The notes under the pieces: model-generated | Told to the model about the DNA's origin: nothing | Database searches by the model: none | Seen by the model: the letters and a program-made list of their open reading frames with translations, nothing else | Shown: in pieces, positions 12,156 to 52,235 of the stretch | Position numbering within the stretch: the first letter of the stretch is position 1 | How the letters are laid out: the number at the start of each line of letters is the position of its first letter | Origin: Candidatus Pacebacteria bacterium CG_4_10_14_3_um_filter_34_15 | GTDB taxonomy: Bacteria; Patescibacteriota; Microgenomatia; UBA1400; PJMF01 | DNA: 64,000 nt | Assembly (NCBI GenBank): GCA_002783105.1 | Contig: PFJN01000016.1 | Span: 15,034 to 79,033, forward strand | Direction: 5' to 3' | Position numbers and translations under genes: made by a program

Positions 12156-14069
12156 ATGATTTGTAATAATCTTAAGATAGATTATAATTCCAGTTATATG
12201 AAACCAGATGAACTTCGAAACCTATACTTAAGTTTTTTCAAAAATAATGGTCATGAAATTGTGCCATCGGCTTCAATTGTGCCAGAAAATGATCCAACTA
12301 CGCTTTTTACTGGATCTGGTATGCAACCAATGATGGAGTATCTGCTCGGTGCAAAACATCCTAAAGGAACTAGAATTGTTGATAGTCAGAAATGTTTTAG
12401 ATCGCAGGATATTGAAGAAGTTGGTGATAATAGACATATAACTTTTTTCGAAATGTTGGGAAATTGGTCTTTTGGGGATTATTTCAAGCAAGAACAGCTT
12501 GAGTGGCTTTTTAAGTTTTTAACTAGAGACATAGATTTGGATCCAAACAAGCTATTCATCACGGTTTTTAGAGGAAATGACAAGCTTAAAATTGGTAAAG
12601 ATGTCAAGTCTGTAGAGATCTGGAAGAAACTATTCTTACAAGTTGGTATAGAGGCAAAAGATATCGATTTTTCAGAAAAGACAGGTCTTCAAGATGGCAG
12701 AATTTTTTATTACGATGAAACCAAAAACTGGTGGTCTAGAGCAGGTATTCCTGATAAGATGCCGGCAGGTGAGCCAGGTGGTCCAGATAGCGAAGTGTTC
12801 TATGATTTTGGTGCAGACAAAAACATTCACGAAAATTCTCAACTTAAAGATGAAGTTTGCCATGTGAACTGTGATTGCGGAAGATTTTTAGAGATTGGCA
12901 ATAATGTTTTCATGCAGTATCAGAAACAAGCTGACGGTGGATTCAAGGAACTTTCGCAAAAGAATGTTGATTTTGGTGGAGGTTTTGAAAGAATTTTAGC
13001 CGCAATCAATGACACTGCCGATGTTTTTCAAACTGCTCTTTTTATTCCAATTATTAGACATTTAGAAAAAATTAGTGACCAAAAATATGAGTCTTCTTCC
13101 AACTCTAAAAGATCTTTTAGAGTTATTGCCGATCATATGCGCGCTGCAGTAATGTTAGCGGCTGACGGCGTTTATCCCTCCAACAAAGAACAAGGTTATT
13201 TTGCCAGAAGACTAGTTAGAAGATCAATTAGATATGCAAAAATGATTGGTGTTAACCAACTATTTGTTGCCGATCTAATTCCGGTAATCGTTGAAATTTA
13301 TCAAAACTCATATCCTGATGTAAGCCAAAAATTAGTCAAAATTCAGAGTGTTTTGGTTCAAGAAGAAAATAAATTTGCCAAAACTATAGAAAAAGGCTTA
13401 CGAGAGCTTGAAAAATATCAAGAAATGACTCCACCAGTTGCTATTGATGGTGCGATTGCATTTAGATTATATGAAACTCATGGATTTCCTTTTGAACTTA
13501 CTCAAGAAATTGCTCATGAAAAGGGTCAAAAAATTAGTCTTGAGGAATTTGAAAATGCTAAGAGGGCTCATGCTGTCATGTCCAGAGACGCTTCTTCAGA
13601 TAAATTCAAAGGTGGCTTACAAGATAGTAGCGTCCAAACCACAAAATATCACACGGCTACTCATTTACTTCATGCCGCTTTGCGAAAGATATTAGGCAGG
13701 CACGTCCAACAAAAAGGATCAAATATAACTGTAGACAGACTAAGATTTGATTTCTCACATCCACAAGCACTTTCTCAGAATGAAAAAATCCAAGTTCAAG
13801 ATCAGGTCAACGAATGGATAGATGCTGCTTTGCCAGTCAAAGTCGAACATTTGAGAAAAAGTGACGCTTTGGAATCTGGAGCAATTGCATTTTTTGTTGA
13901 AAAATACCCTGACGAAGTTACGATTTATACGATTGGAGATGGAGATGCCTGGATTTCAAAAGAATTTTGTGGTGGCCCCCACGTCAAAAATACATCTGAA
14001 ATAGGCAAGATAGAAATCTTTAAAGAGAAGGCAGCTTCTGCCGGAGTTCGAAGAGTTTATCTTAAATAA
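12156..14069 (+). CDS. alaS: alanine--tRNA ligase, short form lacking C-terminal C-Ala domain
   Basis: The N-terminus reads MKPDELRNLYLSFFKNNGHEIVPSASIVP (ATG at 12198), which aligns to canonical AlaRS starts. An editing-domain HxxxH motif, HTATHLLHAALR, is present. An upstream in-frame ATG at 12156 has AAGG just 5'. Confidence 0.9.
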   Translation: MICNNLKIDYNSSYMKPDELRNLYLSFFKNNGHEIVPSASIVPENDPTTLFTGSGMQPMMEYLLGAKHPKGTRIVDSQKCFRSQDIEEVGDNRHITFFEMLGNWSFGDYFKQEQLEWLFKFLTRDIDLDPNKLFITVFRGNDKLKIGKDVKSVEIWKKLFLQVGIEAKDIDFSEKTGLQDGRIFYYDETKNWWSRAGIPDKMPAGEPGGPDSEVFYDFGADKNIHENSQLKDEVCHVNCDCGRFLEIGNNVFMQYQKQADGGFKELSQKNVDFGGGFERILAAINDTADVFQTALFIPIIRHLEKISDQKYESSSNSKRSFRVIADHMRAAVMLAADGVYPSNKEQGYFARRLVRRSIRYAKMIGVNQLFVADLIPVIVEIYQNSYPDVSQKLVKIQSVLVQEENKFAKTIEKGLRELEKYQEMTPPVAIDGAIAFRLYETHGFPFELTQEIAHEKGQKISLEEFENAKRAHAVMSRDASSDKFKGGLQDSSVQTTKYHTATHLLHAALRKILGRHVQQKGSNITVDRLRFDFSHPQALSQNEKIQVQDQVNEWIDAALPVKVEHLRKSDALESGAIAFFVEKYPDEVTIYTIGDGDAWISKEFCGGPHVKNTSEIGKIEIFKEKAASAGVRRVYLK

Positions 14070-14151
14070 TAAGTTGCTCTTCTATTTTAGTCAATAATTT
14101 GCTTTAATTAAGGACAGTAAGCTCGATCTATCGAAGAACGGTTTTATTTTA

Positions 14152-16464
14152 GTGGATTTAATTTATATGGACTTGCCCAACCTATTTTCAACAAATTTGG
14201 ATAAAGAAAACCAAGTGATGACAATTTTTATTCACTTGACCGATATCAAAATTCAATCATTTTTACTTTCAATTTCAGACGAAGGTGCTCAGATTTTAGG
14301 AAAATCTAGCGTTTCGGACTATGAAGGAATAGACAATTGCTTGGTTAGAGTTGATGAAAGTCTACAGCAACTTGGAAAAAAATCGGAGAAAGTGACTTCG
14401 GTTATTTTTGGTTTAAATCACGCTTGGGTCAAAAAAGGTGAGGTTACTGAGGACAAAAATCCATTATTAAAGAAACTCACCGATGATTTAGGCTTAAAAC
14501 CAATGGGTTTTATAATTATTTCTGAGGCTCTCGTTCAGCAAAAAATCTCAGCTAACTCGATGTTCTCAGGAATAATTGCAGTTTTTAGTGAGAAAAATTT
14601 AACACTCTCATTGATTCATCAAGGAAAAGTAAAATCTATAGAAACAGTAGGAAGATCATCCGACGGCAAAGGTGATTTTCTTGAGGGGTTAGCACGATTT
14701 TCTGCTAAGTCAGGAAAAGAGGGTTTCTATTTGCCATCAAAAATAATTTTAGCATCTCTAGATTTAGATGAAAAAGAACTTAAGAAACATCAACAATTTG
14801 TTTATGATTCTGATTGGACAGTTCAAACTCAGTTTTTACAACCTCCAACAGTGACGATAATCGCTCAAAATGATTATGAAGAAATGATAACTAAAGAAGC
14901 CGCAAAAGCTGTTGCTTTGCAAAAAGGTATGACAAAAGCAGCAATGGCTGTGATTACAACCAGAGATTTAGATGTCAAACAACCAACTGAGCTCGATACC
15001 GATGAATTGGGTTTTAGTGAAGTTAATCCAGAAGAAGACTTAGAATTAGCAATAGCTGATGAAGTTGTTGAAGCTGATAGTCAATCTCCAACTTCATTTG
15101 GTGTGCCAATTTCTACAAAAGAACTTGATAAGGAGCTTGCTTCTATTAATGAAAATAATCTAAAAGAGCCAGATTTTGAGGAAAATAGTGAGTCGGCTGT
15201 AGATTTTTCTGGTAAAAAGTCTAATGACGAAGATCAAGAGTATGGAGAAACAAAACATATTTTTGATAAAAATAGATCCAAAGACGTTGTCAATGGAAAA
15301 AATTTTAAGCTTTACACTTTGATTGGATTTATTGCCGGTTTAGTTGCCCTGATGGTCATTGGTTTTTTTGGAATTACAAATTTAGCAATCGCTGAAGTTG
15401 GAGTTGTCTTGGAAACTAAGGCAGTTTCTAAAGACTTAGAAATTATATTAGACACTTCAATTTCAGAAACTGATAGTGAAAAATTAATTTTGGCCGCTGA
15501 CAAAGTTTCTAAGACCGAACAATCTGAAAGCACGATGCAGACTACGGGCGTCACAATTGTTGGTGAAAAAGCCAAAGGTAAGGTTTTTATTTACAATAAT
15601 TTGGTAGCTGCTGAAAAATTGTTGACGAAGGGCACGATATTGAGTGCTGGAGATGTAAAATTTGAGCTTGACGATGATGTAACAGTTCCAGCTGCAAGTA
15701 TTCCACAGCCAACAAAATTGGATCCAGGTAAAGCTGAGGCATTTGTAACGGCAACAAAAATAGGGGCAGAGGGTAACATTGTTGAAGATACGCAACTGCT
15801 GGTTTTGCCATATGACAAAAGTTCATACTATGCAGTTGTAACAGATAATGATTTTGTTGGCGGATCAAGCCGAGAGGTTAAGGTCGTGTCAGAAGCAGAT
15901 AGAATTGAGTTGCTCGCTGATTTAAAGAAAGAGATCATTGAGAAAATAAATAAAGGATTTCAAAATGACTCTGGAAATGGTGTTTATATTTTACCATCTA
16001 ATAATATTGTTTCAGAGAAAGCTGATTTTAACTTTGAAGTAGGGAATGAAGCGGAATCTTTATCTCTCAATTTAACCTTAGAAATTGAGGCAATCAAATA
16101 TACCTCCGAAGATTTAAAACCGCTGGCCACTAAAGTTTTGGCTTCAGAAATACCTGAAAATTACAAATTATTTGATGGGGATCCTCAAATATTATCTGCT
16201 CCAACTGAAAATGCTCTGAATACTTTAGATATTACAAAGCCAGTAACTTTGTCTGTGAACATAAGTTCATTTGCAATTCCCGTAATGTCGCAGGACCGAA
16301 TTAAAGATGAAATTTTAGGAAAATCTATTGATGAAGCAAAGTTAATACTCGAGTCAAAGGATGAAATTAAAACTGTTGAAATAACTATTGATCCATCATT
16401 TGCTAGGTCTCTTGTTAGAAAAATACCTAGAAAATTAGAAAAAATAAAGATCGAGTTTAAATGA
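14152..16464 (+). CDS. large hypothetical membrane protein, cytoplasmic N-domain, central TM helix, extracytoplasmic C-domain
   Basis: 770 aa with a single hydrophobic segment, LYTLIGFIAGLVALMVIGFFGI, near the middle. No motif is recognised with confidence; there is a faint PilM/FtsA-like N-terminal pattern. The start codon is uncertain (14152, 14167 or 14218). Confidence 0.5.
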   Translation: MDLIYMDLPNLFSTNLDKENQVMTIFIHLTDIKIQSFLLSISDEGAQILGKSSVSDYEGIDNCLVRVDESLQQLGKKSEKVTSVIFGLNHAWVKKGEVTEDKNPLLKKLTDDLGLKPMGFIIISEALVQQKISANSMFSGIIAVFSEKNLTLSLIHQGKVKSIETVGRSSDGKGDFLEGLARFSAKSGKEGFYLPSKIILASLDLDEKELKKHQQFVYDSDWTVQTQFLQPPTVTIIAQNDYEEMITKEAAKAVALQKGMTKAAMAVITTRDLDVKQPTELDTDELGFSEVNPEEDLELAIADEVVEADSQSPTSFGVPISTKELDKELASINENNLKEPDFEENSESAVDFSGKKSNDEDQEYGETKHIFDKNRSKDVVNGKNFKLYTLIGFIAGLVALMVIGFFGITNLAIAEVGVVLETKAVSKDLEIILDTSISETDSEKLILAADKVSKTEQSESTMQTTGVTIVGEKAKGKVFIYNNLVAAEKLLTKGTILSAGDVKFELDDDVTVPAASIPQPTKLDPGKAEAFVTATKIGAEGNIVEDTQLLVLPYDKSSYYAVVTDNDFVGGSSREVKVVSEADRIELLADLKKEIIEKINKGFQNDSGNGVYILPSNNIVSEKADFNFEVGNEAESLSLNLTLEIEAIKYTSEDLKPLATKVLASEIPENYKLFDGDPQILSAPTENALNTLDITKPVTLSVNISSFAIPVMSQDRIKDEILGKSIDEAKLILESKDEIKTVEITIDPSFARSLVRKIPRKLEKIKIEFK

Positions 16465-17402: not shown

Positions 17403-17409
17403 AGACCAA

Positions 17410-17615
17410 TTTTTAAAATTAAATATATCAACTGTTCGCGTTGGGACAAGCCCAAAATGCTCTCAGTTCATATATTTAATTTTAAAAAATTATCTAAGAA
17501 TAAAGGATTCGAAAAATTTCGTTGAAGTTGTTTATTTTTTTTGAATTTTCGATTAATTTCAAAATATAAGTACAAACAACGAACATTTTGGGCTTGTCCC
17601 AACGAGAGTTGTTTG
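17410..17615. repeat. intergenic structured element: two nested hairpins sharing an inverted 21-bp core (cgttgggacaagcccaaaatg)
   Basis: Copy A of the core lies at 17439-17459 and copy B, its reverse complement, at 17584-17604. Copy A is enclosed by a perfect 19-bp palindrome, 17410-17428 against 17470-17488, plus aactg/cagtt. Copy B is enclosed by caaacaac/gttgtttg, 17573-17580 against 17608-17615. Confidence 0.5.
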
Positions 17616-17653
17616 AATTTATATTTTGAGGATCATTACTTGAATGAAAAATT

Positions 17654-30898: not shown

Positions 30899-30916
30899 AA
30901 TATTATTGAGATTAGG

Positions 30917-30947
30917 CTTCACCCCGCACTTAACATGCGGGGTGAAA
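30917..30947 (+). terminator. GC-rich hairpin downstream of tuf (likely str-operon terminator)
   Basis: An 11-bp perfect stem, ttcaccccgca paired with tgcggggtgaa, encloses a 7-nt loop. It is a striking GC-rich structure in AT-rich DNA, but no clear T-run follows. Confidence 0.5.
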
Positions 30948-30987
30948 AGTTTAGAGGGCAAAAACGAGAGAAAGAAGAAATTGGGGT

Positions 30988-34896: not shown

Positions 34897-34980
34897 TTAT
34901 AGAAGTAGTATAATGCACAGTCTGGAATTAAGACTAAAATAATTAATCGATGATACCCTAAAGGGTATGAATATAAAAAT

Positions 34981-35631
34981 ATGGGACAAAAAGTACATCC
35001 AACTGGCTTCAGAATAGGCTCAACATTTAGTTGGAAGTCTCGTTGGTTTGCAGATCCTAAAGATTATTCAGATAGAGTAATTGAAGACTACAAAGTTAGA
35101 AAATTTTTAAATGATAAGCTGATCAGTGCTGGAGTGACAAATGTAGAAATCGAGAGATCTTTAAAAGCAATTAAAGTGGTATTATTTGTTTCTCGTCCTG
35201 GTGTTGTCATCGGTAAAGGTGGAACAAATCTCGAAGTAATTAAAAAGGAAATCGAGAGAATCTTAAACGTTTCAAAATTACAAAAAGATAAAGTTAAAAT
35301 TGATTTAAGAGTCGAAGAAGTTAGAAAACCAGATTTAAGTTCTAAATTAGTTGCAGAAAGAATTGTAGCTCAATTAATTAAACGATTCCCACACAGAAGA
35401 GCTGTCATGCAAGCATTGGAAAAAACTATGCAAGCTGGCGCAAAAGGAATAAAAATTCAACTTTCTGGAAGAATTAACGGAGCTGAAATTGGAAGAACTG
35501 AAAAATATTTTCAAGGGTCAGTTCCAACTCAGACAATCAGAGCTAATATTGATTATTTCCAAGTACCAGCTAGAACTCGTTCTGGGTATGTTGGAATAAA
35601 GGTATGGATTTATAAAGGTGAGGTAGTCTAA
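34981..35631 (+). CDS. rpsC: 30S ribosomal protein S3
   Basis: The translation begins MGQKVHPTGFRIGSTFSWKSRWFA.. and contains KH-domain GKGG. Confidence 0.93.
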   Translation: MGQKVHPTGFRIGSTFSWKSRWFADPKDYSDRVIEDYKVRKFLNDKLISAGVTNVEIERSLKAIKVVLFVSRPGVVIGKGGTNLEVIKKEIERILNVSKLQKDKVKIDLRVEEVRKPDLSSKLVAERIVAQLIKRFPHRRAVMQALEKTMQAGAKGIKIQLSGRINGAEIGRTEKYFQGSVPTQTIRANIDYFQVPARTRSGYVGIKVWIYKGEVV

Positions 35632-35634
35632 GAT

Positions 35635-36039
35635 ATGCTACAACCAAAAAAAGAAAAACACCGTAAACAATTTAGAGGAAAAATGAGAGGAACAGCTCAA
35701 CGTGGTACAGACGTTTCTTTTGGTGAATTCGGATTACAAGCAACCTCAAGAGGTTGGGTATCCGCTAGACAAATTGAGGCAGCTAGAAAAAAAATCACTT
35801 TTATGACTAAAAGAGATGGTAAGTACTGGGTTAGAGTTTTCCCACACAAGCCAATTACTAGTAAGCCAGTTGGAGTAAAAATGGGTTCTGGTAAAGGTGC
35901 AGTTAAGGAACACGTTGCAGTTGTGAGACCAGGATCAGTACTATTTGAATTAAGTGGTGTTTCAGAAGAAACAGCCCGTTTGGCTTTCGTCAAAGCTGGA
36001 CACAAGTTATCAGTAAAAACAGCATTTGTTAAAAAATAA
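35635..36039 (+). CDS. rplP: 50S ribosomal protein L16
   Basis: The translation [19 protein letters not shown].. is the L16 signature. Confidence 0.93.
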
Positions 36040-36058
36040 TTAAACCCTAAAGGGATAA

Positions 36059-36250
36059 ATGAGAACTAACGATATAAAAGCACTACATGATAAAACGATC
36101 GAAGAACTTAATCTTCAGCTCGAAGTATTGTTAGTCTTATTGGCAAAATCAAGATTGCAAAAAAGAGCAGGCAAGTTAAAAAATACCCACATCTGCTTGT
36201 TGGCAGATGATGTTGCTAGAGTTAAGAGTGTAATAGGAAATAAATCATGA
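36059..36250 (+). CDS. rpmC: 50S ribosomal protein L29
   Basis: It is 63 aa, at the expected position between rplP and rpsQ. Confidence 0.8.
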   Translation: MRTNDIKALHDKTIEELNLQLEVLLVLLAKSRLQKRAGKLKNTHICLLADDVARVKSVIGNKS

Positions 36251-36486
36251 AATCTATAAATGGCACTGTTGAATCATTGAAGTCTACCAAAACTGCAAAA
36301 GTCAGAGTTGTTAGATTGTGGCAACATCCTTTATACCTAAAGTCTGTTAAACGTACAAAATCATATGCTTGTCATTATGAGGGTATTGATTTTGAAGTTG
36401 GTGATGAAGTTGTTATTGAGGCTTCAAGACCAATTAGTAAAACAAAGAAGTTTAAAATAGTTTCAAAAATTGGAGGAGCCAAGTAA
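36247..36486 (+). CDS. rpsQ: 30S ribosomal protein S17
   Basis: It is 79 aa with the S17 pattern (GTVESLKSTKTAKVRVVR..HPLYLK). Confidence 0.88.
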   Translation: MKSINGTVESLKSTKTAKVRVVRLWQHPLYLKSVKRTKSYACHYEGIDFEVGDEVVIEASRPISKTKKFKIVSKIGGAK

Positions 36487-36860
36487 TGATCCAATTAAGA
36501 TCTATTCTACAAATTGCTGATAATTCAGGTGCAAAAAGAATCAGAGTTATTCAGGTTCATGGTGGATCAAGAAAAAGATTTGGGGTTGTTGGTGATATAG
36601 TTGCTGCTTCTGTAATAGTTTCAGACGCAACTGGATCAATTAAAAAAGGTGAGGTTGTTAAAGCAGTTATTGTTAGAACCAGAAAAGAAGTTAGAAGAAA
36701 TTCTGGAGAGTATGTAAGATTTGATGATAACGCAGCAGTTATTATTGAATCAAGAGCAAACCCAATTCCAGTTGGAACTCGTGTTTTTGGACCAATCGCA
36801 AGAGAAGTTAAGAACAGAGGTTTCAATAAGATAGCAAGTTTAGCACAAGAGGTTTTATAG
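36486..36860 (+). CDS. rplN: 50S ribosomal protein L14
   Basis: The translation begins MIQLRSILQIADNSGAK.. and is 124 aa. Confidence 0.93.
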   Translation: MIQLRSILQIADNSGAKRIRVIQVHGGSRKRFGVVGDIVAASVIVSDATGSIKKGEVVKAVIVRTRKEVRRNSGEYVRFDDNAAVIIESRANPIPVGTRVFGPIAREVKNRGFNKIASLAQEVL

Positions 36861-36889
36861 GCTAATTATTGTACCCTGAAAGGGCAAAA

Positions 36890-37210
36890 GTGAAATTTAA
36901 ACTTAATGACAAAGTACTAATAACTGCAGGAAAAGATAAGGGAATATCTGGAGTTATTAAAAAGGTTTATCCAAAACTAAATAAAGTTTTGGTTGAAGGT
37001 GCAAACAAATATACCAAGCATATTAAACCAGTAAGTGGCAGAGCAGGAGATAAAATTAAGGTTGAGAGACCGCTCCACACTGCAAGTATCGCTATTCTTA
37101 ATGACAAGGGTGTAGCAGACAGAGTTGGATTTAAAGTTGCTAAAGATGGTACAAAATCAAGATTTTTTAAGAAAACAGGAAAAATCATAACAGAAAAAGG
37201 GCACAAATGA
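36890..37210 (+). CDS. rplX: 50S ribosomal protein L24
   Basis: A GTG start at 36890 gives MKFKLNDKVLITAGKDKG.., the canonical L24 N-terminus. The track's TTG at 36869 is in frame but adds 7 unlikely residues and spans the upstream hairpin. Confidence 0.85.
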   Translation: MKFKLNDKVLITAGKDKGISGVIKKVYPKLNKVLVEGANKYTKHIKPVSGRAGDKIKVERPLHTASIAILNDKGVADRVGFKVAKDGTKSRFFKKTGKIITEKGHK

Positions 37211-37758
37211 AATTAAAACAATTATACATTAGCAAAATTTTGCCAGAACTTAAAAAGGAGTTTAAGTTAACTAATGATTTTGAAGTTCCAAAATTAGAAA
37301 AAATTATTGTTAACATTGGTGTTGCAGATCCTCAAGATCCAAAGGCTAGAAAAGTGGCAATTGCTAATATCGTTGAGCAATTTGCTACCATCACAGGACA
37401 ACAGCCAGTTGTTACTTTGGCTCATAAATCCATTGCCAACTTTAAATTAAGAGTAGGCGATCCTTTGGGAGTTAAAGTAACACTGCGAGGAAAAAGAATG
37501 TGGGGATTTCTTGAGAAACTAATCTCAGTCGCATTACCTCGTGTTAAAGATTTCAGAGGAGTTTCAAAGACTGCTTTTGATCATGCAGGTAATTATAGTA
37601 TGGGAGTGGAAGAACAAATCATCTTTCCAGAAATTAATTACGATAAAATAGAACGTATAAGAAGTTTCCAAATAGTATTAGTAACTTCAGCTAAAACAGA
37701 CGAAAAGGCTTTCAGAATGTTAGAATTATTTGGAATGCCTTTCGAGAAAAAGGAATAA
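37207..37758 (+). CDS. rplE: 50S ribosomal protein L5
   Basis: It is 183 aa with the L5 pattern (..NIGVADPQDPKA..). Confidence 0.92.
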   Translation: MKLKQLYISKILPELKKEFKLTNDFEVPKLEKIIVNIGVADPQDPKARKVAIANIVEQFATITGQQPVVTLAHKSIANFKLRVGDPLGVKVTLRGKRMWGFLEKLISVALPRVKDFRGVSKTAFDHAGNYSMGVEEQIIFPEINYDKIERIRSFQIVLVTSAKTDEKAFRMLELFGMPFEKKE

Positions 37759-37763
37759 TTTAA

Positions 37764-37994
37764 ATGGCTAAAAAATCAAAAGTTGCAAAATCAAAAAAAT
37801 TATTGGCACTAAGAGAATCCTTGAGAAAATCAGGAGTCAAAAAAGTCAATAAAGTTTTAACCAGAGGAGTAAACCGTTGTAAAATAACTGGTCGTCCTAG
37901 AGGTTATATGAGATTTTTTGGTTTAAGTAGATTAACATTTAGAGAGTTAGCTTCAAAAGGAGAATTACCTGGAGTAGTTAAATCAAGTAAGTAA
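37764..37994 (+). CDS. rpsN: 30S ribosomal protein S14 (short, single-Cys variant)
   Basis: It is 76 aa with [19 protein letters not shown]. Confidence 0.85.
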
Positions 37995-38001
37995 AAACAT
38001 T

Positions 38002-38394
38002 ATGACAACCGATCCAATATCAGATATCATCATCAGAATAAAGAACGCATATATGGCTCGCCATTCTAAAGTTGAAGTTCCTTATTCAAAAATGAAGAAG
38101 GCTGTCGCAGATATTCTTTTGAAAGAAGGATATGTTAGTGAGGTCGGTATGAAAGAAAGTAAGCCATTTAATTATTTGGTTATAACATTAAAATACATTG
38201 GAAAATTACCAGCAGTAAATGATGTTAAGAGATTATCTAAACCAGGAAGAAGATTATACGCACCAGTAAGCAAATTACCAAAAACTTTAGGTGGCTATGG
38301 AATTACTATTGTTTCTACAAGCAAAGGTGTCATGACTGACAAAGAAGCTCGTAAAGCAAATTTGGGAGGAGAACTTCTTTGCCAAGTTTGGTAA
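38002..38394 (+). CDS. rpsH: 30S ribosomal protein S8
   Basis: It has DPISDIIIRIKNAY at the N-terminus and is 130 aa. Confidence 0.92.
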   Translation: MTTDPISDIIIRIKNAYMARHSKVEVPYSKMKKAVADILLKEGYVSEVGMKESKPFNYLVITLKYIGKLPAVNDVKRLSKPGRRLYAPVSKLPKTLGGYGITIVSTSKGVMTDKEARKANLGGELLCQVW

Positions 38395-38408
38395 AAGGTT
38401 AAATATAT

Positions 38409-38945
38409 ATGTCAAGAATTGGAAGAAAATCTATCACATTGCCGGCGGGAGTAACAGCTACCGTTACTAATAATATTGTTGAGGTAAGAGGTCCTAAAGG
38501 TCAACTTAAAGTTTTGTGCTTACCTAATATTACAGTTGTAGTTAAAGATGGCGAAATTCTTGTTGAAAGAAAAAGTGAAGATAAACAAACTCGTTCTTTT
38601 CATGGCCTAATTAGAAGTTTAATTCAAAATAATGTTTTGGGTGTTACAGAAAATTACAAAAAAACTTTAAAGTTAGTTGGAACAGGCTATAGAGCAAAAG
38701 CTCAGGGAGCAAACGTTTTTTTAGCAGTTGGGTATTCTCACCCAGTTGAAGTTAAAGCAGTTAATGGAGTATCTATTAAAGTTGAAGGAAATGACACTAT
38801 CATTATAGAAGGAATTGACAAACAAGCAGTTGGTCAATTAGCAGCAGACATCAGAAAGATCAGACCACCAGAGCCTTATAAGGGCAAAGGTATCAGATAT
38901 GAAAATGAAACTGTTATTAGAAAACAAGGAAAGGCAGCAGCATAA
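38409..38945 (+). CDS. rplF: 50S ribosomal protein L6
   Basis: The translation begins MSRIGRKSITLPAGVTATV.. and is 178 aa. Confidence 0.92.
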   Translation: MSRIGRKSITLPAGVTATVTNNIVEVRGPKGQLKVLCLPNITVVVKDGEILVERKSEDKQTRSFHGLIRSLIQNNVLGVTENYKKTLKLVGTGYRAKAQGANVFLAVGYSHPVEVKAVNGVSIKVEGNDTIIIEGIDKQAVGQLAADIRKIRPPEPYKGKGIRYENETVIRKQGKAAA

Positions 38946-39316
38946 TGCCAAAAATTAGTCATTACACTACCAAATCAGATAGCAGAAAAATTAGAGTTCG
39001 TTCCAAAATCTTTGGTACTGCTGAAAGACCAAGATTGACAGTTTATCGTGCCAACAAGTATTCTTACATTCAAATAATTGATGATGTAAAAGAAGTAACA
39101 TTATTAACAATGAGTGACATGAAGATCAGAAAAGCAGTTAAGAAAACAGACAAACTTACCAAAACAGAGTCTGCTATCAAAGCCACAGAAGAATTGCTAG
39201 TCAAGATGAAAAAAGCAAAGATTACCGCTGTAGTTTTTGATAGAGGTCAATATAAATATCATGGTAGAGTCAAGGCAATCGCCGAAGCTTTAAGAAATGG
39301 TGGAATAAAGGTATAA
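38945..39316 (+). CDS. rplR: 50S ribosomal protein L18
   Basis: It is 123 aa and contains RPRLTVYRANKYSYIQIIDD. Confidence 0.9.
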   Translation: MPKISHYTTKSDSRKIRVRSKIFGTAERPRLTVYRANKYSYIQIIDDVKEVTLLTMSDMKIRKAVKKTDKLTKTESAIKATEELLVKMKKAKITAVVFDRGQYKYHGRVKAIAEALRNGGIKV

Positions 39317-39319
39317 AAC

Positions 39320-39889
39320 ATGAATCAACGACCAAGCACAAACAAACATTCTGGCAATAACGAACCAAAAGAATTCGAAGAGAAGGTTATTAGAATTTCT
39401 CGAGTTTCAAAAAAAACCAAAGGTGGAAACAATGTAGGTTTTTCCGTTCTAATGGTTGTTGGCGATAAAAAAGGAAGAGTTGGAGTGGGTTTGGGAAAAG
39501 CTAAAGACGTTATTGGTGCTATTAAAAAAGGCATTAAAAAAGCTAAAAAGAAAATGATTACAGTTCCTCTTGACGGTACTACTATTCCATTTCCAATCAC
39601 TGTTAAAAAAGGTGCCGGAATTGTTATGTTGAAGCCAGCTCCCAAAGGTTCTGGAGTTATTGCAGGTGGACCAGTTCGTGCAGTTGTAGAAGCAGCTGGA
39701 GTTAGAGATATCTCAAGTAAAATCCTTGGATCTGAGAACCAAGCTTCTAGTGTTTATGCAACTTTTGAAGCTTTAACTGAAATTCAAAAAATTGTTGAGT
39801 TAAAGGGAATCAAGTTAAAATCTATTGCTCAGGTTGAAGCAGAAGAAGCAGAGAAAATTAAAAAAATTCAAGAACAAGCAAAGAAATAA
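39320..39889 (+). CDS. rpsE: 30S ribosomal protein S5 with acidic/lysine C-terminal extension
   Basis: The S5 core (..VIRISRVSKKTKGGN..) is followed by a roughly 30-aa EAEEAEKIKKIQEQAKK tail. Confidence 0.9.
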   Translation: MNQRPSTNKHSGNNEPKEFEEKVIRISRVSKKTKGGNNVGFSVLMVVGDKKGRVGVGLGKAKDVIGAIKKGIKKAKKKMITVPLDGTTIPFPITVKKGAGIVMLKPAPKGSGVIAGGPVRAVVEAAGVRDISSKILGSENQASSVYATFEALTEIQKIVELKGIKLKSIAQVEAEEAEKIKKIQEQAKK

Positions 39890-39893
39890 TATC

Positions 39894-40334
39894 ATGTCAT
39901 TACTTACAAACTTACTTAAAATTACAGAAACATCAAAAAAACGCGTCGGTCACGGTTATGGTTCTGGAAAAGGTGGTCACACATCTACTAGAGGTCAAAA
40001 AGGTCAAAAATCTAGAGGTGGTTCCAAGATTCCTGTATGGTTTGAAGGTGGTCAACTACCTTTAATCAAACGTTTGCCTATGTTAAGAGGTAAGGGTAGA
40101 TTAACAGTTGTCAGACCATCTGCAGAGATAAACTTAACTCAAATTCAAAGAATGAAAACTGATGTTATTACACTTGATGCTTTAAAGCTTGAAAAATTAA
40201 TTGATATTAAATTTAAAAAAGCAAAGATTATTGCAAGTGGTGAAATAACTAGAAAAGTAACCATAAAAGGTTTGAAAATTTCGGAAACTGCAAAAAAAGC
40301 TGTCGAGAAAGCTGGTGGAATCATCGAAGATTAA
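39894..40334 (+). CDS. rplO: 50S ribosomal protein L15
   Basis: An ATG at 39894 gives MSLLTNLLKITETSKKRVGHGYGSGKGGHTSTRGQKGQKSRGG. It lies immediately after rpsE with no L30 gene between. Confidence 0.9.
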   Translation: MSLLTNLLKITETSKKRVGHGYGSGKGGHTSTRGQKGQKSRGGSKIPVWFEGGQLPLIKRLPMLRGKGRLTVVRPSAEINLTQIQRMKTDVITLDALKLEKLIDIKFKKAKIIASGEITRKVTIKGLKISETAKKAVEKAGGIIED

Positions 40335-40386
40335 GATAGCGAGTATTGAACAAACAGCAGGAAAGTTATACCCTAATCAGGTGCTT

Positions 40387-41667
40387 ATGAAGAAATTAAC
40401 TGATTTTTTAAAAAAGATTAATTCTACACCGGAGTTAAAAAAGAAACTCTTGTTTACGGCAGCTATACTTTTAGCATTTAGATTTTTCGCACACATTCCA
40501 CTTCCTTCTGTAGATTTACAACAACTAAGACAATTATTTGCTTCAAATCAATTTTTAAGTTTACTAAATGTTTTTTCAGGCGGGACACTTTCAAACTTTT
40601 CAGTTTTAGCGGTTGGAATTAACCCATACATTACTGCTTCGATTGTAATGCAACTTGGTGGAATGGTAGTTCCAAAAATTAAAGAAATGCAGAAAGACGG
40701 TGAAGCTGGTCGAGAAAAATTGAATCAATATACTAGATATTTATCAGTTCCATTAGCAGTTGGTCAGAGCATTTCTGTCTTAGCGCTTTTACGTTCTCAA
40801 AACTTGCTGGAGTCAACTTCTCCACTAGCATTTATTGCGATGATTTTGTCATTAGTAGCTGGTTCTTTAATTGTTACTTGGTTGGGGGAATTAGTTTCCC
40901 TTCACGGTATCGGTAATGGAATTTCCATGATTCTATTTGCAGGTATAGTAAGTCAACTTCCCAGCTCGTTTTCTCAGGTTTTGTTATCTGGCACAAATAG
41001 GCTTTTTGTTGGAGTTTCTTTCTTTACCGTCTTTTTTATGATTATCGGTTTGATTGTATTTATGAATGAAGCAGTTAGAAAGATCACAATTCAATATGCT
41101 ACTAGAACTAGAGGAAAGAAATCATACGGTGGCCAGACAACTCATTTACCTATTAAAGTAAACGTTGCTGGAGTGATGCCGATTATTTTTGCAGTTTCTA
41201 TAATGTTGGTTCCATCATTTGTAGCAAAATTAATGATTGCTTCCAGTAATCCCAAGATTATTGAAATCGGAAATATGCTTACAATTAATTTTCAACAGAC
41301 TTCTCCAGTCTATATGATTCTTTATTTTATCATTGTCTTTTTCTTTACTTTCTTTTCATCGATGATCTTTTTCAATGCAGAAGATATTTCAGATGAATTG
41401 AAAAAAAGCGGCGCATTTGTTCCAGGTATTAGGCCAGGAACTAACACTAAAAAGTTTTTGGAATATGTAGTTTCAAGAATTACCATTGCAGGCGCATTCT
41501 TTTTAGGTTTTATTGCAATTATGCCTTCATTAGCTCAAATTTTTACAGGTATAGGGCAACTATCAGTAAGTGGAACTAGCATCTTAATTGTTGTCTCAGT
41601 AGTATTAGAAACCTACAAACAAGTCGATAGTATGCTAGTTGAGCAAAACTACGATCGATTTATTTAG
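40387..41667 (+). CDS. secY: preprotein translocase subunit SecY
   Basis: The translation begins MKKLTDFLKK..LLFTAAILLAFRFFAHIPLP, and about 10 TM helices are predicted. The track's 40315 start would overlap rplO. Confidence 0.9.
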   Translation: MKKLTDFLKKINSTPELKKKLLFTAAILLAFRFFAHIPLPSVDLQQLRQLFASNQFLSLLNVFSGGTLSNFSVLAVGINPYITASIVMQLGGMVVPKIKEMQKDGEAGREKLNQYTRYLSVPLAVGQSISVLALLRSQNLLESTSPLAFIAMILSLVAGSLIVTWLGELVSLHGIGNGISMILFAGIVSQLPSSFSQVLLSGTNRLFVGVSFFTVFFMIIGLIVFMNEAVRKITIQYATRTRGKKSYGGQTTHLPIKVNVAGVMPIIFAVSIMLVPSFVAKLMIASSNPKIIEIGNMLTINFQQTSPVYMILYFIIVFFFTFFSSMIFFNAEDISDELKKSGAFVPGIRPGTNTKKFLEYVVSRITIAGAFFLGFIAIMPSLAQIFTGIGQLSVSGTSILIVVSVVLETYKQVDSMLVEQNYDRFI

Positions 41668-41697
41668 TAATAATAAATTTAAACCGAAAGGGAAAAA

Positions 41698-42234
41698 ATG
41701 AAATTAGTATTAATTGGCATTCAAGGAGCAGGGAAATCAACCCAAGGTAATTTCTTAGCAGATAAATATAAAATTCCTTATTTATCTTCAGGACATATTT
41801 TTAGAGATATGGCTAGAGAAAAAACACAGATTGGTAGATGGCTTAAAGAAACAATTAATTCAGGAGCACTAGTTCCAGACGACAAAACATTAGAAATTAT
41901 TTTGACATACTTAGAAAAACCAGAATATGCCAATGGTTATATTTTAGATGGTTTTCCCAGAACTGTGGTTCAAGCTGATGCCTTTAATGGCGGTGTTGAT
42001 AAAGTTATTTTTCTAGAAGTTTCTGATAAAGAGGCCCTTTGGAGACTTGCTGGTAGATCTAGTGATCGAGGCGATGAAACTATTCATGCTATCAAAAAAA
42101 GAATTGATCTTTTCCATAATTTTACAGAACCAGTCATCCAATTTTATAAAAAAGAAGGCAAATTAATTGTTGTAGATGGCGAAAAGAATATTGATGAAGT
42201 TTTTAAGGATATCTGCAAGGAATTAGATAAATAG
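41698..42234 (+). CDS. adk: adenylate kinase (short form)
   Basis: It has a P-loop, GIQGAGKSTQG, and is 178 aa. Confidence 0.88.
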   Translation: MKLVLIGIQGAGKSTQGNFLADKYKIPYLSSGHIFRDMAREKTQIGRWLKETINSGALVPDDKTLEIILTYLEKPEYANGYILDGFPRTVVQADAFNGGVDKVIFLEVSDKEALWRLAGRSSDRGDETIHAIKKRIDLFHNFTEPVIQFYKKEGKLIVVDGEKNIDEVFKDICKELDK

Positions 42235-42978
42235 ATGAGCAAAACTCTAGAATATAAGATTAAGTCAATGCGTGAAGGAGGAAAAGCTCTTGGAGTTATT
42301 AAAAGGCATTTGGCCGAATTTTCCAAACCCGGTGTCTCATTCGAGCAAATTGAGACTCAAGCACAAAAGTTGATTAAAGAAGCTGGTATGTTGCCAAGTT
42401 TTTCTACTGTTCCAGGTTATAGATGGGCAACATGTATTATGAAAAATGATAGCGTATGTCATGGAATTCCTCAAAATAATGTGATTAAAGACGGAGATGT
42501 TATTACTATAGATATTGGTCTAATTAATAATAATTTTCATTTAGATACCACAATTACTTTTGCAGTTGGAGAAGTTAGCTCAGAAATAAGAGAGTTCCTT
42601 AATACTGGTAAAAAATCATTAGAGAAAGCTATTCAAAGCGCAAAAATTGGCAATTCAGTATATGACATTAGTCGAGCAATGGAAAAACCACTCAAGAGAA
42701 AAGGGTATGGAGTAGTTTTTCAGCTAACTGGTCATGGTGTCGGAGAAGAGCTTCATATGGAGCCATCAATACCTTGTGTACCAGATAAAACTGACAGAAA
42801 TGTCAAGCTTTACGAAGGCCAAACTCTAGCTATTGAAAACATGTATACTATGGGAAATGCAACTTTGAAAGAGTCTTCAGACGGTTGGACTTACAAAACT
42901 ATTGATGGCTCAACTTCGGGCATGTTTGAGGAGACTGTCCTAATTACTAAAAAAGGTCCTGAAATACTGACGAATTAG
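42235..42978 (+). CDS. map: methionine aminopeptidase type I
   Basis: It is 247 aa with pita-bread fold metal ligands (D..D..H..E..E pattern). Confidence 0.88.
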   Translation: MSKTLEYKIKSMREGGKALGVIKRHLAEFSKPGVSFEQIETQAQKLIKEAGMLPSFSTVPGYRWATCIMKNDSVCHGIPQNNVIKDGDVITIDIGLINNNFHLDTTITFAVGEVSSEIREFLNTGKKSLEKAIQSAKIGNSVYDISRAMEKPLKRKGYGVVFQLTGHGVGEELHMEPSIPCVPDKTDRNVKLYEGQTLAIENMYTMGNATLKESSDGWTYKTIDGSTSGMFEETVLITKKGPEILTN

Positions 42979-43123
42979 CGCTTCCATCTGGTACAAGATG
43001 AAGAAGCTGAATTGCGAAGCAGGAGAGGCCAACTTGGGTTGTGACCATAGCCAGAGAAGATACCCTGGGGTATAATACTAACTTCTGACTCCATTTTAAT
43101 TAATTGTTGTCAGATAGGTATAT

Positions 43124-43447
43124 ATGGGTAAAGTTCAAGATCATAAAAGATCTGCTAAATCAAAAAAGCAAGTAGACACCACTGCTAAGAAGTCCGATCG
43201 CAACGATCGTTTCGAAGTCGAAGGTGTGGTTGAGAATTGCCTGCCAAATACCATGTTTAGAGTATTGGTAACTGATTCAGAAGTTAAACCCATGATAAAC
43301 AAAATTCTCTTGGGAACATTGGTCGGCAAGATGAGATTATATAGAATTAGAGTTATGCCAGGCGATTTAATCAGGGGATATGTATCTAAATATGACCTCA
43401 ATAAGTGTAAAATCACCTATAGATCAACCAAACAAGCTACGCAGTAA
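43124..43447 (+). CDS. infA: translation initiation factor IF-1 with ~30-aa basic N-terminal extension
   Basis: An S1-like core (RFEVEGVVENCLPNTMFRVLV..) sits at its expected position after map. Confidence 0.88.
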   Translation: MGKVQDHKRSAKSKKQVDTTAKKSDRNDRFEVEGVVENCLPNTMFRVLVTDSEVKPMINKILLGTLVGKMRLYRIRVMPGDLIRGYVSKYDLNKCKITYRSTKQATQ

Positions 43448-43537
43448 AACTAATTCTTTTCAATTTTGATAAATTGATGTATAGTTCAAGCCTGTTGAAA
43501 AATTAGAAGACATAAATAAACCCTGAAAGGGCCTAAA

Positions 43538-43651
43538 GTGAAAGTAAAAGTATCTTTAAAAACAATTTGCATTCATTGCAAGCTTGTTAAGCGTAAAGGA
43601 GTTCTGAGACGTATTTGTACAGAACCAAAACATAAAGGAAAACAAGGATAA
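43538..43651 (+). CDS. rpmJ: 50S ribosomal protein L36
   Basis: A GTG start gives [37 protein letters not shown], 37 aa, with the C-x2-C-x12-C-x4-H zinc ribbon. It is not in the ORF track because it is under 60 aa. Confidence 0.85.
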
Positions 43652-43657
43652 GAATAT

Positions 43658-44068
43658 ATGCCTCGTATTATTGGTGTTGATATACCAGAAAACAAAAAAA
43701 TCCTTTTCTCACTTCAATTTATTTATGGAGTAGGAGGAACCGTAGCAGAAACAGTATTAAGAGAAGCTCAGGTTGATCCAGATAAAAGAGCAAAAGACTT
43801 AACTAATGAAGAAGTAAACAGAATTCAAAGAATATTTGACAGATACGAACTTGAAGGTGATCTAAGAAGACACGTAAGCGATAATATTGACCGTTTGAAG
43901 CGCATTAGAAGCTATAGAGGAATGCGTCATATTATGAAGCTTCCAGCTAGAGGTCAAAGAACAAGAACAAACTCTAGAAATGCTAGAGGTGGTTCAAAGA
44001 GAAAAACAGTTGGTGCTATGTCTAAAGAAATGGCAACAAAATTAGAAACAGCAAAAAAAGGTAAATAA
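43658..44068 (+). CDS. rpsM: 30S ribosomal protein S13
   Basis: The translation begins MPRIIGVDIPENKKI.. and is 136 aa. Confidence 0.93.
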   Translation: MPRIIGVDIPENKKILFSLQFIYGVGGTVAETVLREAQVDPDKRAKDLTNEEVNRIQRIFDRYELEGDLRRHVSDNIDRLKRIRSYRGMRHIMKLPARGQRTRTNSRNARGGSKRKTVGAMSKEMATKLETAKKGK

Positions 44069-44073
44069 TTATC

Positions 44074-44481
44074 ATGGCTCAAGAAAGAAAGAACACAACT
44101 ACAAGTAAGCAACTAAAAAAAGTAACCAAAGCTGTTCCTAAAGGCAGAATATATGTTACCGCTACATTTAACACTACAATGGTGAGTGTTACAGATGATG
44201 TAGGAAATGTTATCTGCTGGTCTACAGCAGGTGAAGCAGGTTTCTCAGGATCAAGAAAATCAACCCCATATGCGGCTACCATTACAGTTGAAAATGCTGT
44301 TAATAAGGCAAGAGCATTTGGAATGAATACAGTAGATGTATTCATTAAAGGACCAGGTCCTGGAAGAGACGTTACATTAAGAGTTTTGAGAGCTCAAGGT
44401 ATTAGAGTCAGTATGATTGCTGATATGACACCAGATCCTCATAACGGAACTAGACCAAGAAAAGCAAAACATAACAAGTAA
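44074..44481 (+). CDS. rpsK: 30S ribosomal protein S11
   Basis: It is 135 aa with the S11 pattern (..GRIYVTATFNTTMVSVTD..). Confidence 0.93.
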   Translation: MAQERKNTTTSKQLKKVTKAVPKGRIYVTATFNTTMVSVTDDVGNVICWSTAGEAGFSGSRKSTPYAATITVENAVNKARAFGMNTVDVFIKGPGPGRDVTLRVLRAQGIRVSMIADMTPDPHNGTRPRKAKHNK

Positions 44482-44508
44482 GAAAATACCCTAAGGGGCA
44501 CAAGTAAT

Positions 44509-45114
44509 ATGGCACGATACATTGGACCAAAAAATAAATTAGCAAGAAAAATTGGTGAAGACTTAGGTCTTAAGACCAACGCTCTTAAAGTTGCAAGACG
44601 TTTGACTTCTAAACCAGGTCAACACGGTGCAAAATCAAGAAGAAAAACTTCTGATTATGGAACTCAACTTAATGAGAAACAAAAAGTTAAGTATATTTAT
44701 GGTATTTTGGAAAGACAACTTAGAAAGCTTTATACCGAAGCTAGTAAGAATCCAACAGCAACTGGTGCCGCTCTTTTAAGTTTACTTGAAAGAAGATTAG
44801 ACAATGCTATTTATAGATTGGGCTGGACAGGCACTAGAGCCGCTGCAAGACAATTAGCATCTCACTCTCATATAAGAATAAATGGTAAAAAAATGGATGT
44901 TCCTTCTTACCAAGTAAAAGTAAATGACATTATTTCTTTAACTTCAAAGGGAATGAAAATACCTTTGATTTCAGAAGCAATAAAAGAAAATTCAAGTAAA
45001 GTCACATGGTTAGAACAAAAAGGTGCTGTAGCTAAGGTATCAAGATTGCCTGAGAGAACAGACGTCACAGAGTCAATAGAAGAACAACTAATTGTTGAGT
45101 ACTACAGTAGATAA
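44509..45114 (+). CDS. rpsD: 30S ribosomal protein S4
   Basis: The translation begins MARYIGPKNKLARKIGEDLGLK.. and is 201 aa. Confidence 0.93.
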   Translation: MARYIGPKNKLARKIGEDLGLKTNALKVARRLTSKPGQHGAKSRRKTSDYGTQLNEKQKVKYIYGILERQLRKLYTEASKNPTATGAALLSLLERRLDNAIYRLGWTGTRAAARQLASHSHIRINGKKMDVPSYQVKVNDIISLTSKGMKIPLISEAIKENSSKVTWLEQKGAVAKVSRLPERTDVTESIEEQLIVEYYSR

Positions 45115-45194
45115 AAAATATTATTAATTAAAATCTAGAAACAGATTCCCGAAAGAACAAAGTTCTCAGGGGAGAAGAAACAAAGGAGAAAAAT

Positions 45195-51959: not shown

Positions 51960-52235
51960 TTACCAAACTTGTTTCTTTAATGGTTTGCCAACTCTGAAGT
52001 TAACAACTTTATGACCTTTGATTGTCTGTCTTTTAGATTCATTACCAAAAGGGACTACTTGTTTGTCTCCAACTTTGCTAACATAAAATGTTCCGAATCC
52101 TGAAATAACTACTTTTTCACCTTTATTAAGTGAACGGATGACTTCTTCAAACAGTGCTTCGATAGCATCTGAAGAAGCTTTTTTTGTTAAGTGAGCTTTT
52201 TTTGCAATAACAGCAACCAATTGTGATTTAGTCAT
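51960..52235 (-). CDS. HU/IHF-family DNA-binding protein
   Basis: It is 91 aa and contains ..GEKVVISGFGTFYVSKV..RQTIKGHKVVNFRVGKPLK. Confidence 0.85.
   Translation of the reverse strand: MTKSQLVAVIAKKAHLTKKASSDAIEALFEEVIRSLNKGEKVVISGFGTFYVSKVGDKQVVPFGNESKRQTIKGHKVVNFRVGKPLKKQVW

Follow-up and report, generated by a model that had tools for sequence, protein, structure and literature searches.

A copied, fast-turnover ribosome-binding-site hairpin may precede ribosomal protein genes in one Candidatus Pacebacteria lineage

What does a short palindrome do when it recurs immediately before the start codons of a ribosomal protein gene cluster? The question is raised by a 64,000-nucleotide (nt) stretch of Candidatus Pacebacteria bacterium CG_4_10_14_3_um_filter_34_15 (contig PFJN01000016.1, positions 15,034 to 79,033, forward strand), hereafter the window. 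It has a G+C content of 34% and carries on its plus strand rpoB-rpoC-rpsL-rpsG-fusA-tuf and the S10-spc-alpha supercluster. An initial annotation of this DNA reported a CCCTRAAGGG mini-hairpin before several of these genes and proposed a shared signal for translational control or mRNA processing. Read as a conserved signal, this proposal is too strong. The observations are better fitted by a lineage-specific ribosome-binding-site (RBS) hairpin module that is copied between gene starts, turns over quickly and carries a C-run that weakly masks its own Shine-Dalgarno (SD) sequence. We give this reading a probability of about one in two.

The five core copies first reported, before rpsC, rpmC, rplX, rpmJ and rpsD, were all present, on the plus strand. 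Their coordinates needed no change for the first four genes; the rpsD hairpin begins at 44489 (not 44490), and a related copy before adk spans 41684-41692 (not 41685-41693). The rpmC copy (CCCTAAAGGG, 36045-36054; CCC-TAAA-GGG) begins 5 nt past the rplP stop and ends 4 nt before the ATG at 36059. The rplX cassette (TACCCTGAAAGGGCAAAAGTG, 36872-36892) consists of the hairpin CCCTGAAAGGG (36874-36884), a 5-nt spacer and a GTG start at 36890. The same hairpin, CCCTGAAAGGG, lies at 43521-43531 in the rpmJ cassette (43521-43540), where it is followed by cctaaa and a GTG start at 43538. In the rpsD cassette (TACCCTAAGGGGCACAAGT, 44487-44511), the hairpin CCCTAAGGGG (44489-44498) lies 7 nt past the rpsK stop and 10 nt before the start, the ATG at 44509 being preceded by aat. 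The adk copy (CCGAAAGGG; region 41684-41700, plus strand) reads CC-GAAA-GG(G), followed by aaaaa and the ATG at 41698. The rpsC leader copy (ATACCCTAAAGGGTAT, 34953-34968; ATACCC-TAAA-GGGTAT) has a 6-bp stem and a minimum free energy of −7.6 kcal/mol, and its hairpin ends 15 nt from the ATG at 34981, beyond the normal SD distance.

Most copies were intercistronic, as first described, with the hairpin beginning 4-19 nt after the upstream stop. The placement did not hold for rpsC and rpmJ, whose copies lie in leaders behind promoter-like boxes: the rpsC hairpin starts 56 nt past the upstream stop, downstream of a conserved TATAAT box (34909-34914), and the rpmJ hairpin starts 73 nt past the upstream stop, behind a conserved box at 43457-43485. 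Across copies, the core was CCC(U)-loop-(A)GGG with a loop of 3-5 nt, about 10-11 nt long, or ~20 nt with flanks. The consensus was (T/A)A-CCC(T)-loop-(A)GGG-(C/T)A(M)AA(GT), with a start codon, often GTG, within ~4-10 nt. An A nearly always preceded the C-run, and a C or T followed the G-run; the T extends the stem to ACCC/GGGT or ATACCC/GGGTAT. The loops seen were UAAA, GAA or UGAAA, UAAG, GGAA, CAAA and UGAUU.

We compared the 30 nt before 75 gene starts in the window (2,250 nt) with its sense coding sequence (60,555 nt). CCC-N3-5-GGG occurred five times upstream and twice in coding sequence (odds ratio 67, Fisher p = 1.2e-6). The stricter CCCTRAAGGG gave three matches in the window against 0.04 expected from shuffles, so the motif is non-random by either measure, and ~67-fold denser upstream than in coding sequence. 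With the looser CCC-N2-7-GGG we found 12 sites in 64 kb, six of them in spacers of the ribosomal protein cluster, and non-coding sequence makes up only ~5% of the window. C accounts for 9.6% of the upstream regions; five of the six CCC triplets there sit 3-5 nt 5' of a GGG (binomial P = 3.5e-8). In the five genomes of the clade described below, 17 of 20 upstream CCC triplets had a GGG at 3-5 nt (P ~ 7e-25), counts that are phylogenetically non-independent.

The GGG triplet is frequent without CCC as an SD-like element, for example before rpoB, rplE, the gene at 61963 and 51960-52235 (minus strand; upstream ...aaaagggaataaaa). The dependence is therefore one-way, in that CCC appears solely where it partners a GGG. 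No enrichment at junctions was seen for hairpins of other GC triplets (GGG..CCC, GCC..GGC and so on); only the orientation with C at the 5' side and G at the 3' side was enriched. The CCC-N3-5-GGG sites of two relatives, L081 (5/5) and L001 (3/3), lay just 5' of a start codon. All intergenic copies were on the sense strand, 4-15 nt before the start. No copies were found in ~35 kb of the window outside the cluster or in ~30 other spacers of at least 19 nt, a cluster specificity that rests on 64 kb of one genome. One match on the minus strand, CCC-N7-GGG-aaaa-ATG at 2912-2931 with CCC-N7-GGG itself at 2919-2931, lies in frame in a P-type ATPase gene (Met347, hydrolase domain) and was judged a chance occurrence.

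An SD-like GGG that merely happens to stand beside an unrelated CCC would explain why the folding energies are no better than those of dinucleotide shuffles. The counts in the window and the clade, the 67-fold excess over coding sequence and the recurrence of the motif in independent assemblies already refute such a coincidence, to which we attach practically no weight.

If the element were a conserved regulator, it would be expected at the same junctions in close relatives. We searched genome, metagenome and protein collections with SecY and read ~21 kb per relative. The nearest public genomes were Patescibacteria or Microgenomates-type metagenome-assembled genomes, some of them mislabelled "Pseudomonadales". 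In the locus and protein searches, SecY identity to the window was 94% for L081, 90% for L161, 88% for L001 and L167, 87% for L162, 85% for L170 and 81% for L168; tblastn re-comparison gave 88% for L161 and 86% for L162. L163, L166, L164, L165, L169 and L002 followed at 77-79%, and more distant Microgenomates were lower. A neighbour-joining tree of 13 concatenated proteins placed the genomes as ((((window,L081),L161),L162),L001), with (L164,(L163,L166)) as sister. Copies were compared by explicit pattern and minimum-energy scans, as MAFFT mis-registers the variable loops of 14 short copies.

We observed that the motif was confined to the clade of the window, L081, L161, L162 and L001, except at adk, where a C-run/G-run pair was also found in L163, L166 and L002. 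Same-junction conservation, a check set beforehand, largely failed. The type of element nevertheless recurs among them. The rpsC copy was found in the window only, being absent from L081, L161, L162 and L001. The rpmC copy was decayed to CCCAAAAAGAG in L081 and absent from the other three. At rplX, the window, L081 and L001 had the copy, each with a GTG start, and L161 and L162 lacked it and start with ATG. The rpmJ copy was shared by the window and L081, which has an additional ACCTAAAGGT and an ATG start; L161, L162 and L001 lacked it and have ATG starts. The rpsD copies of the window and L081 were identical. L161 and L162 had none, and L001 has a different hairpin, ATACC-tgaatt-GGTAT. Only L081 retained any of the rpsC, rpmC, rpmJ and rpsD copies intact, at rpmJ and rpsD, and other junctions (rpsS, rplE and secY) were occupied instead.

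The rpsS copy was present only in L001. At rplE, L081 carries a full copy, AATACCCTAAAGGGCACAAGTG, of which the window retains the 3' half, AAAGGGCACAA, in a relic (AAAAAGGGCACAA then ATG, 37194-37209, plus strand); the 5' arm is gone, and rplX and rplE now overlap (ATGA). The secY copy was found in L161, L162, L001 and L168, was deleted in L081 and is decayed in the window, where the initiation region (40370-40389, plus strand) reads ACC-ctaatca-GGT, gctt and the ATG at 40387. Mechanical calling had opened this reading frame at a GTG at 40315, overlapping rplO. The true start is the ATG at 40387, after a 52-nt spacer, because homologues have 426 amino acids. At adk, 9 of 12 related genomes had a C-run/G-run pair, with differing loops. 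Only the adk and secY sites were widely kept; the rpsC, rpmC, rpmJ, rpsD, rpsS and rplE copies each occurred in one or two of the five clade genomes.

The differences between close relatives were clean gains or losses of a unit. Filled spacers measured 19-31 nt, and the orthologous empty spacers were 1-12 nt long, A/T-only and without an SD. This was observed for rplN-rplX (29-31 versus 9-10 nt, L161 and L162 being 19-20 nt shorter), rplP-rpmC (19 versus 2-8 nt), rpsK-rpsD (27 versus 12 nt), rplB-rpsS (27 versus 1-9 nt) and rplX-rplE (19 versus −4 to 5 nt). SD-less spacers of 1-12 nt, ATGA overlaps and 19-31 nt spacers with hairpin and SD thus interchange among genomes whose concatenated ribosomal proteins differ by 10-15%.

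The unit is also copied between sites. In L081, the rplE and rpsD copies were identical at 22 of 23 nt, including flanks outside the stem (AGAATACCCTAA[A/G]GGGCACAAGT), and a ...CA(M)AAGT tail was found in eight copies. All five GTG starts among 151 clade starts followed the motif (5/16 starts with it versus 0/135 without; p = 7e-6). They represent three independent junctions (rplX, rplE and rpmJ), at which the orthologous empty sites start with ATG. The unit seems to bring its own ...AAGTG end.

Several of these observations would also fit a neutral or selfish palindromic repeat of ~20 nt, placed in A/T-rich sites near gene starts by repeated templated insertion, ectopic gene conversion or an unknown mobile process and tolerated because it supplies an RBS or leaves one intact. 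Its hairpin would simply result from the palindromic insert and would not be under selection. In line with this, close relatives differ by the clean presence or absence of 15-22 nt, copies at different junctions match in flanks of no obvious role, and decay is rapid (L081 rpmC, the half copy at window rplE and the ACC..GGT at window secY). Some copies are near-perfect palindromes with TA flanks (TACCCT-AA-AGGGTA and TACCCT-TG-AGGGTA). L161 contains a copy-like TTTATACCCTTGAGGGTACAAGTC in frame within the 5' coding region of rpoA (14730-14790), which makes the gene nine codons longer than in the window, L081 and L001. In a distant Curtissbacteria genome, L013, an unrelated hairpin element is present in three copies, before secY, rpsD and rpoA.

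The repeat explanation does not account for the placement of the intergenic copies, all sense and all 4-15 nt before a start, with none in the window outside the cluster, nor for the persistence of the adk and secY copies over deeper divergence with changing loops. We found no target-site duplication at the boundaries between filled and empty sites. The 2.5 Mb of loci contained no longer parent element and no matching terminal repeat or inverted partner (TA-CCCT..AGGG-TA, tail CACAAGT), and on this ground we rejected a transposon footprint or solo terminal repeat, except as one form of the neutral repeat. We consider a neutral repeat rather unlikely, and still the strongest competitor of a copied RBS module.

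For a copied RBS module, the G-run should serve as the SD. As first proposed, it was the only SD-like sequence for rpmC, rplX, rpmJ and rpsD, and also for adk; at rpsC the copy lies too far from the start for a normal SD. The distance from the end of the G-run to the start was 4-6 nt for rpmC, rplX, adk and rpmJ in the window, for rplE in L081, for adk in L081, L161 and L001, and for secY in L001. Duplexes of (G/U)AAAGGG with an assumed canonical 16S rRNA tail, CACCUCCUUUC, gave −5.7 to −7.8 kcal/mol, within the range of the genome's genuine SDs; the organism's own 16S 3' tail may differ from the one used in this computation. By the same measure, 24 of 75 genes had no SD at all. There was no rRNA gene in the window or in the loci of the relatives, and no tRNA or tmRNA gene was found. 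The anti-SD CCTCCT is detected less often only in a subgroup of Parcubacteria, with Microgenomates unaffected (PMC9297842).

The best available evidence came from adk. In genomes without the C-run, the position equivalent to the G-run is occupied by GGGAG (L168), AGGAG (L164 and L169) or GAGGAG (L165). The G-run is thus positionally equivalent to canonical SDs, and most likely acts as one.

The hairpin is the sole structured element containing GC in spacers otherwise made of A and U. Of 27 copies examined across genomes, 26 had the stem of C-run and G-run as their predicted minimum-energy fold. This agrees with the earlier suggestion that the SD is held in a CCC/GGG stem, although the stems are weak and no better than those of shuffled sequences. 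At secY and adk, the arms stay complementary across deeper divergence while the sequence and length of the loop change. The secY forms were ACCC-tgatt-GGGT (L161 and L162), ACCC-caaa-GGGT (L001), ACCC-tcaaa-GGGT (L168), ACC-ctaatca-GGT (window) and AACC-N8-GGTT; those at adk were CC-gaaa-GG, CCC-ggaa-GGG, CCT-gga-AGG, CCT-a7-AGG, CCC-tcgc-GGG and CCCG-ttcaat-CGGG. Stem variants were few (CCT/AGG, CCCG/CGGG, ACC/GGT and ACCT../..AGGT), with few double compensatory changes, and the covariation support is weak.

From these features we infer how the module might work. The purine-rich loop and G-run, (G/U)AAAGGG, would act as the SD by pairing with the 3' tail of 16S rRNA, which presumes a tail of the type ...CCUCCUUU. 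In free mRNA, the C-run would fold back on the G-run, and the marginal hairpin would partly mask the SD and damp independent entry of 30S subunits. At intercistronic copies, where the upstream stop is 4-19 nt away, the hairpin would be opened by the ribosome that terminates there. Translation could in this way stay coupled and roughly equimolar despite the ~15-22 nt that the cassette adds to the spacer. Such opening would fall within the RNA-unfolding model of translational coupling, an established framework (PMC12548453). New copies would arise by copying between initiation regions of the S10-spc-alpha cluster and would be lost quickly by decay or deletion. Beyond coupling, a tuning or other regulatory effect on initiation may be involved.

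Several observations weigh against the RBS module. At −1.6 to −7.6 kcal/mol, the hairpins are weak. Their minimum-energy fold accounts for a fraction of 0.3-0.6 of the ensemble, and their stability showed no gain over dinucleotide-preserving shuffles (z −1.4 to +1.0). Masking would therefore be modest at best; the unusual feature is a C-run next to a G-run in an A/U-only spacer, and the folding energy is unexceptional. True covariation is scarce because nearly all stems are CCC/GGG. The copies at rpsD, L001 rpsS and rpsC lie 10-15 nt from the start. Those at rpsC and rpmJ lie more than 50 nt past the upstream stop, behind their promoter-like boxes, and no terminating ribosome could therefore open them there. 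The in-frame copy in L161 rpoA looks like the product of a mutational or insertional process and not of selection for an RBS. Finally, the positions were hardly conserved, even among genomes that share 86-94% SecY identity.

The leader copies bear on another explanation, in which the hairpin stabilizes or processes mRNA. At a primary 5' end, or once an endonuclease has cut the A/U-rich spacer, it would cap the 5' end of the downstream segment or the 3' end of the upstream one, protecting stable, translatable sub-transcripts from exonucleases. This would suit an element that is the only GC-containing structure in its spacers and that occurs both between cistrons and behind promoter-like boxes, and it would make sense of an rpsC copy too distant from its start to serve as an SD. 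Other hairpins are often found at the same junctions in relatives (the 10-bp stem at L081 rpsC; ATACC..GGTAT at L001 rpsD), and an analogous concept exists for plastid intercistronic elements (PMC2230500). A structural cap would not need the exclusive C-5'/G-3' polarity, however, and stems of 3-4 bp fall far short of the strength of the protective stem-loops known at 5' or 3' ends. The empty orthologous junctions also work without a hairpin. We consider a stability or processing determinant improbable.

A common trans-acting factor could also bind the element, whether a translational repressor, a ribosomal protein or an antitermination factor of the boxB/N type on a CCCU-GAAA-AGGG hairpin. What speaks for such a factor is that the same sequence, and not just any hairpin, stands before many genes that belong to a single functional class. 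Yet genomes with 86-94% SecY identity differ in which genes are marked, a difference that would not be tolerated in a regulon, and the loops vary (UAAA, UGAAA or GAA, UAAG, GGAA, CAAA and UGAUU). Variable arm spacing (3-9 nt) and asymmetric loops argue against a dimeric-protein DNA operator, which we rejected. No Rfam family matched. A trans-acting factor is, in our judgement, very improbable.

With respect to boxB, the CCCUGAAAGGG(C) copies bear an apparent resemblance to the lambda nut boxB, GCCCUGAAAAAGGGC, in their CCCU/AGGG stem and GA-rich loop; the loops do not fit. BoxB combines a 5-bp stem with a GNRA-like loop of 5 nt (GAAAA or GAAGA) and also depends on boxA and the N protein. The present loops measure 3-5 nt and vary in sequence (UAAA, UAAG, GGAA, CAAA and UGAUU), the stems are 3-6 bp and the elements abut start codons, so boxB was rejected; boxA was not searched for. 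A CsrA site was rejected because the G-run lies in the stem and not as GGA in a loop. We also rejected an intrinsic terminator: the sense strand has no T-run, and the total of eight terminator-like matches in the scan equalled the shuffle expectation of 8.4. Antisense matches at 43535-43517 and 44501-44486 reflect the A-rich flank.

Among known systems, a copied RBS module would resemble structures that sequester an SD for translational coupling, such as those of E. coli rpmI-rplT, the phage MS2 coat and lysis genes and phage f1 genes VII-IX (reviewed in PMC12548453). As in those structures, the predicted stem holds the downstream SD between ribosomal protein cistrons, and several copies, 4-13 nt past the stop, would be within reach of a terminating ribosome. 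The present stems are a marginal 3-6 bp, one sequence is reused at many junctions and is not kept in close relatives, and two copies lie in leaders without a nearby upstream cistron.

A second likeness is to short dispersed palindromic repeats of 35-150 nt, comprising repetitive extragenic palindromes and their mosaic elements (REP/BIME), miniature inverted-repeat transposable elements (MITEs) and the Rickettsia palindromic elements, which insert in frame into genes. The element shares with these its multi-copy palindromes, presence/absence polymorphism, similarity beyond the stem and one in-frame coding copy (L161 rpoA). It differs in being ~20 nt long, always in sense orientation and immediately 5' of starts in one gene cluster, with no target duplication and no associated transposase, including the RAYT type, seen in the 64-kb window or in ~21 kb per relative. 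The element would thus function in the manner of a hairpin that masks an SD between cistrons, and its evolution is like that of short dispersed palindromic repeats.

FourU and ROSE RNA thermometers pair the SD with U-rich strands in 5' untranslated regions of heat-shock and virulence genes and are positionally conserved. They share with the present element a small, marginal hairpin that pairs the SD; in the cassette, the SD pairs with CCC(U), the marked genes are those of ribosomal proteins and turnover is rapid. The ribosomal protein leaders of Rfam (S10, L4, S4/alpha and S8/spc) occur in the same operons and offer a hypothetical link to ribosomal protein stoichiometry. Unlike the cassette, they are larger, specific for a single protein and positionally conserved. 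Rfam gave no match at gathering thresholds anywhere in the window, and at E ≤ 5 over 30-48 kb there were only three chance-level matches, all elsewhere. We found no description in the literature of such an element in the candidate phyla radiation (CPR) or Patescibacteria.

If the element is a copied RBS module, initiation regions in a streamlined, uncultured lineage would be rebuilt on very short timescales. This would bear on how equimolar synthesis of ribosomal proteins is kept without conserved junction signals. A bolder version is that the reduced genomes of the CPR harbour a portable RBS of ~20 nt, comprising hairpin, SD, spacer and in many cases a GTG of its own, that actively spreads from one gene start to another; we regard this as doubtful. 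Templated insertion, ectopic conversion or a mobile mechanism not yet recognised could carry such a unit, which would take the place of SD-less reinitiation junctions and make initiation uniform across ribosomal protein cistrons. Taken together with Curtissbacteria analogues before secY, rpsD, rpoA and infA, it would point to a general, undescribed mode of initiation-region evolution in Microgenomates. The practical consequences concern gene calling, at the GTG starts of rplX and rpmJ and at the start of secY, and the reading of motifs: one that recurs in a single genome is not thereby a conserved regulator. The element is small, weak and lineage-restricted, and opens no long-standing question.

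The Curtissbacteria element is a repeated unit of ~50 nt (..N..CCCCTTAg), found in L013 at 9902-9960, 14023-14075 and 14699-14760 and in L009 at ~12727-12800. It stands directly before secY, rpsD and rpoA in L013 and before infA in L009; its sequence is unrelated to that of the cassette and its placement is analogous. It may be a split RBS brought into register by the hairpin.

Two further sites had been listed as related forms together with adk. The adk site, CC-GAAA-GGG, is indeed related, and the other two proved to be different elements. The infA palindrome (43060-43073) overlaps a TATAAT (43071-43076), and relatives keep tctggTATAAT about as far from infA; the site is a promoter-like box and no copy of the cassette. 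The rpoA site belongs to a separate leader (45137-45194, stem 45148-45172) of the form aGAAACaGATTC-[hairpin]-GGGAGaaGAAACAAAGGAG-N5-7-ATG, with flanks conserved in 12 genomes (window, L081, L161, L001, L163, L164, L003, L005, L082, L083, L133 and L085). Its stem differs in nearly every lineage, with compensatory double changes in four of six predicted pairs, and its GAAACA boxes are nearly invariant. The rpoA leader had no Rfam match. It is possibly an undescribed cis-regulatory leader of rpoA in Microgenomates.

The promoter-like box before rpsC is gtagTATAATgcaca (34905-34935), conserved and followed by a 5'-proximal hairpin, AGTCTggaattaAGACT, which is TTCCG..CGGAA in L003. In L081, the rpsC leader (~4440-4498) has another, stronger hairpin with a 10-bp stem, CTCTATTTTC-taaa-GAAAATAGAG; varied hairpins recur at this junction. 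The box before rpmJ is ttttcaatt-N-TATAGTtcaagcctg (43457-43485) and is conserved in relatives. The boxes before rpsC, infA and rpmJ suggest several putative internal transcription starts in the cluster.

Within the cluster, the rpsE-rplO spacer (39889-39894) is 4 nt long, with no L30 gene between. A missing L30 is a hallmark of the CPR (PMC9297842). The window encodes a 76-amino-acid form of rpsN, and its infA has an N-terminal extension of 30 residues. Outside the cluster, a strong GC hairpin (tcaccccgca-cttaacat-gcggggtga, 30915-30950) lies directly after tuf and is probably its terminator; a weak Rfam suhB match there was at chance level (E = 1.8). The 251-nt spacer before ruvX (17403-17653) contains a long inverted repeat, gttgggacaagcccaaaatg ... 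cattttgggcttgtcccaac, around ~130 nt of A/T-rich sequence and is a candidate for a small RNA gene or MITE-like element.

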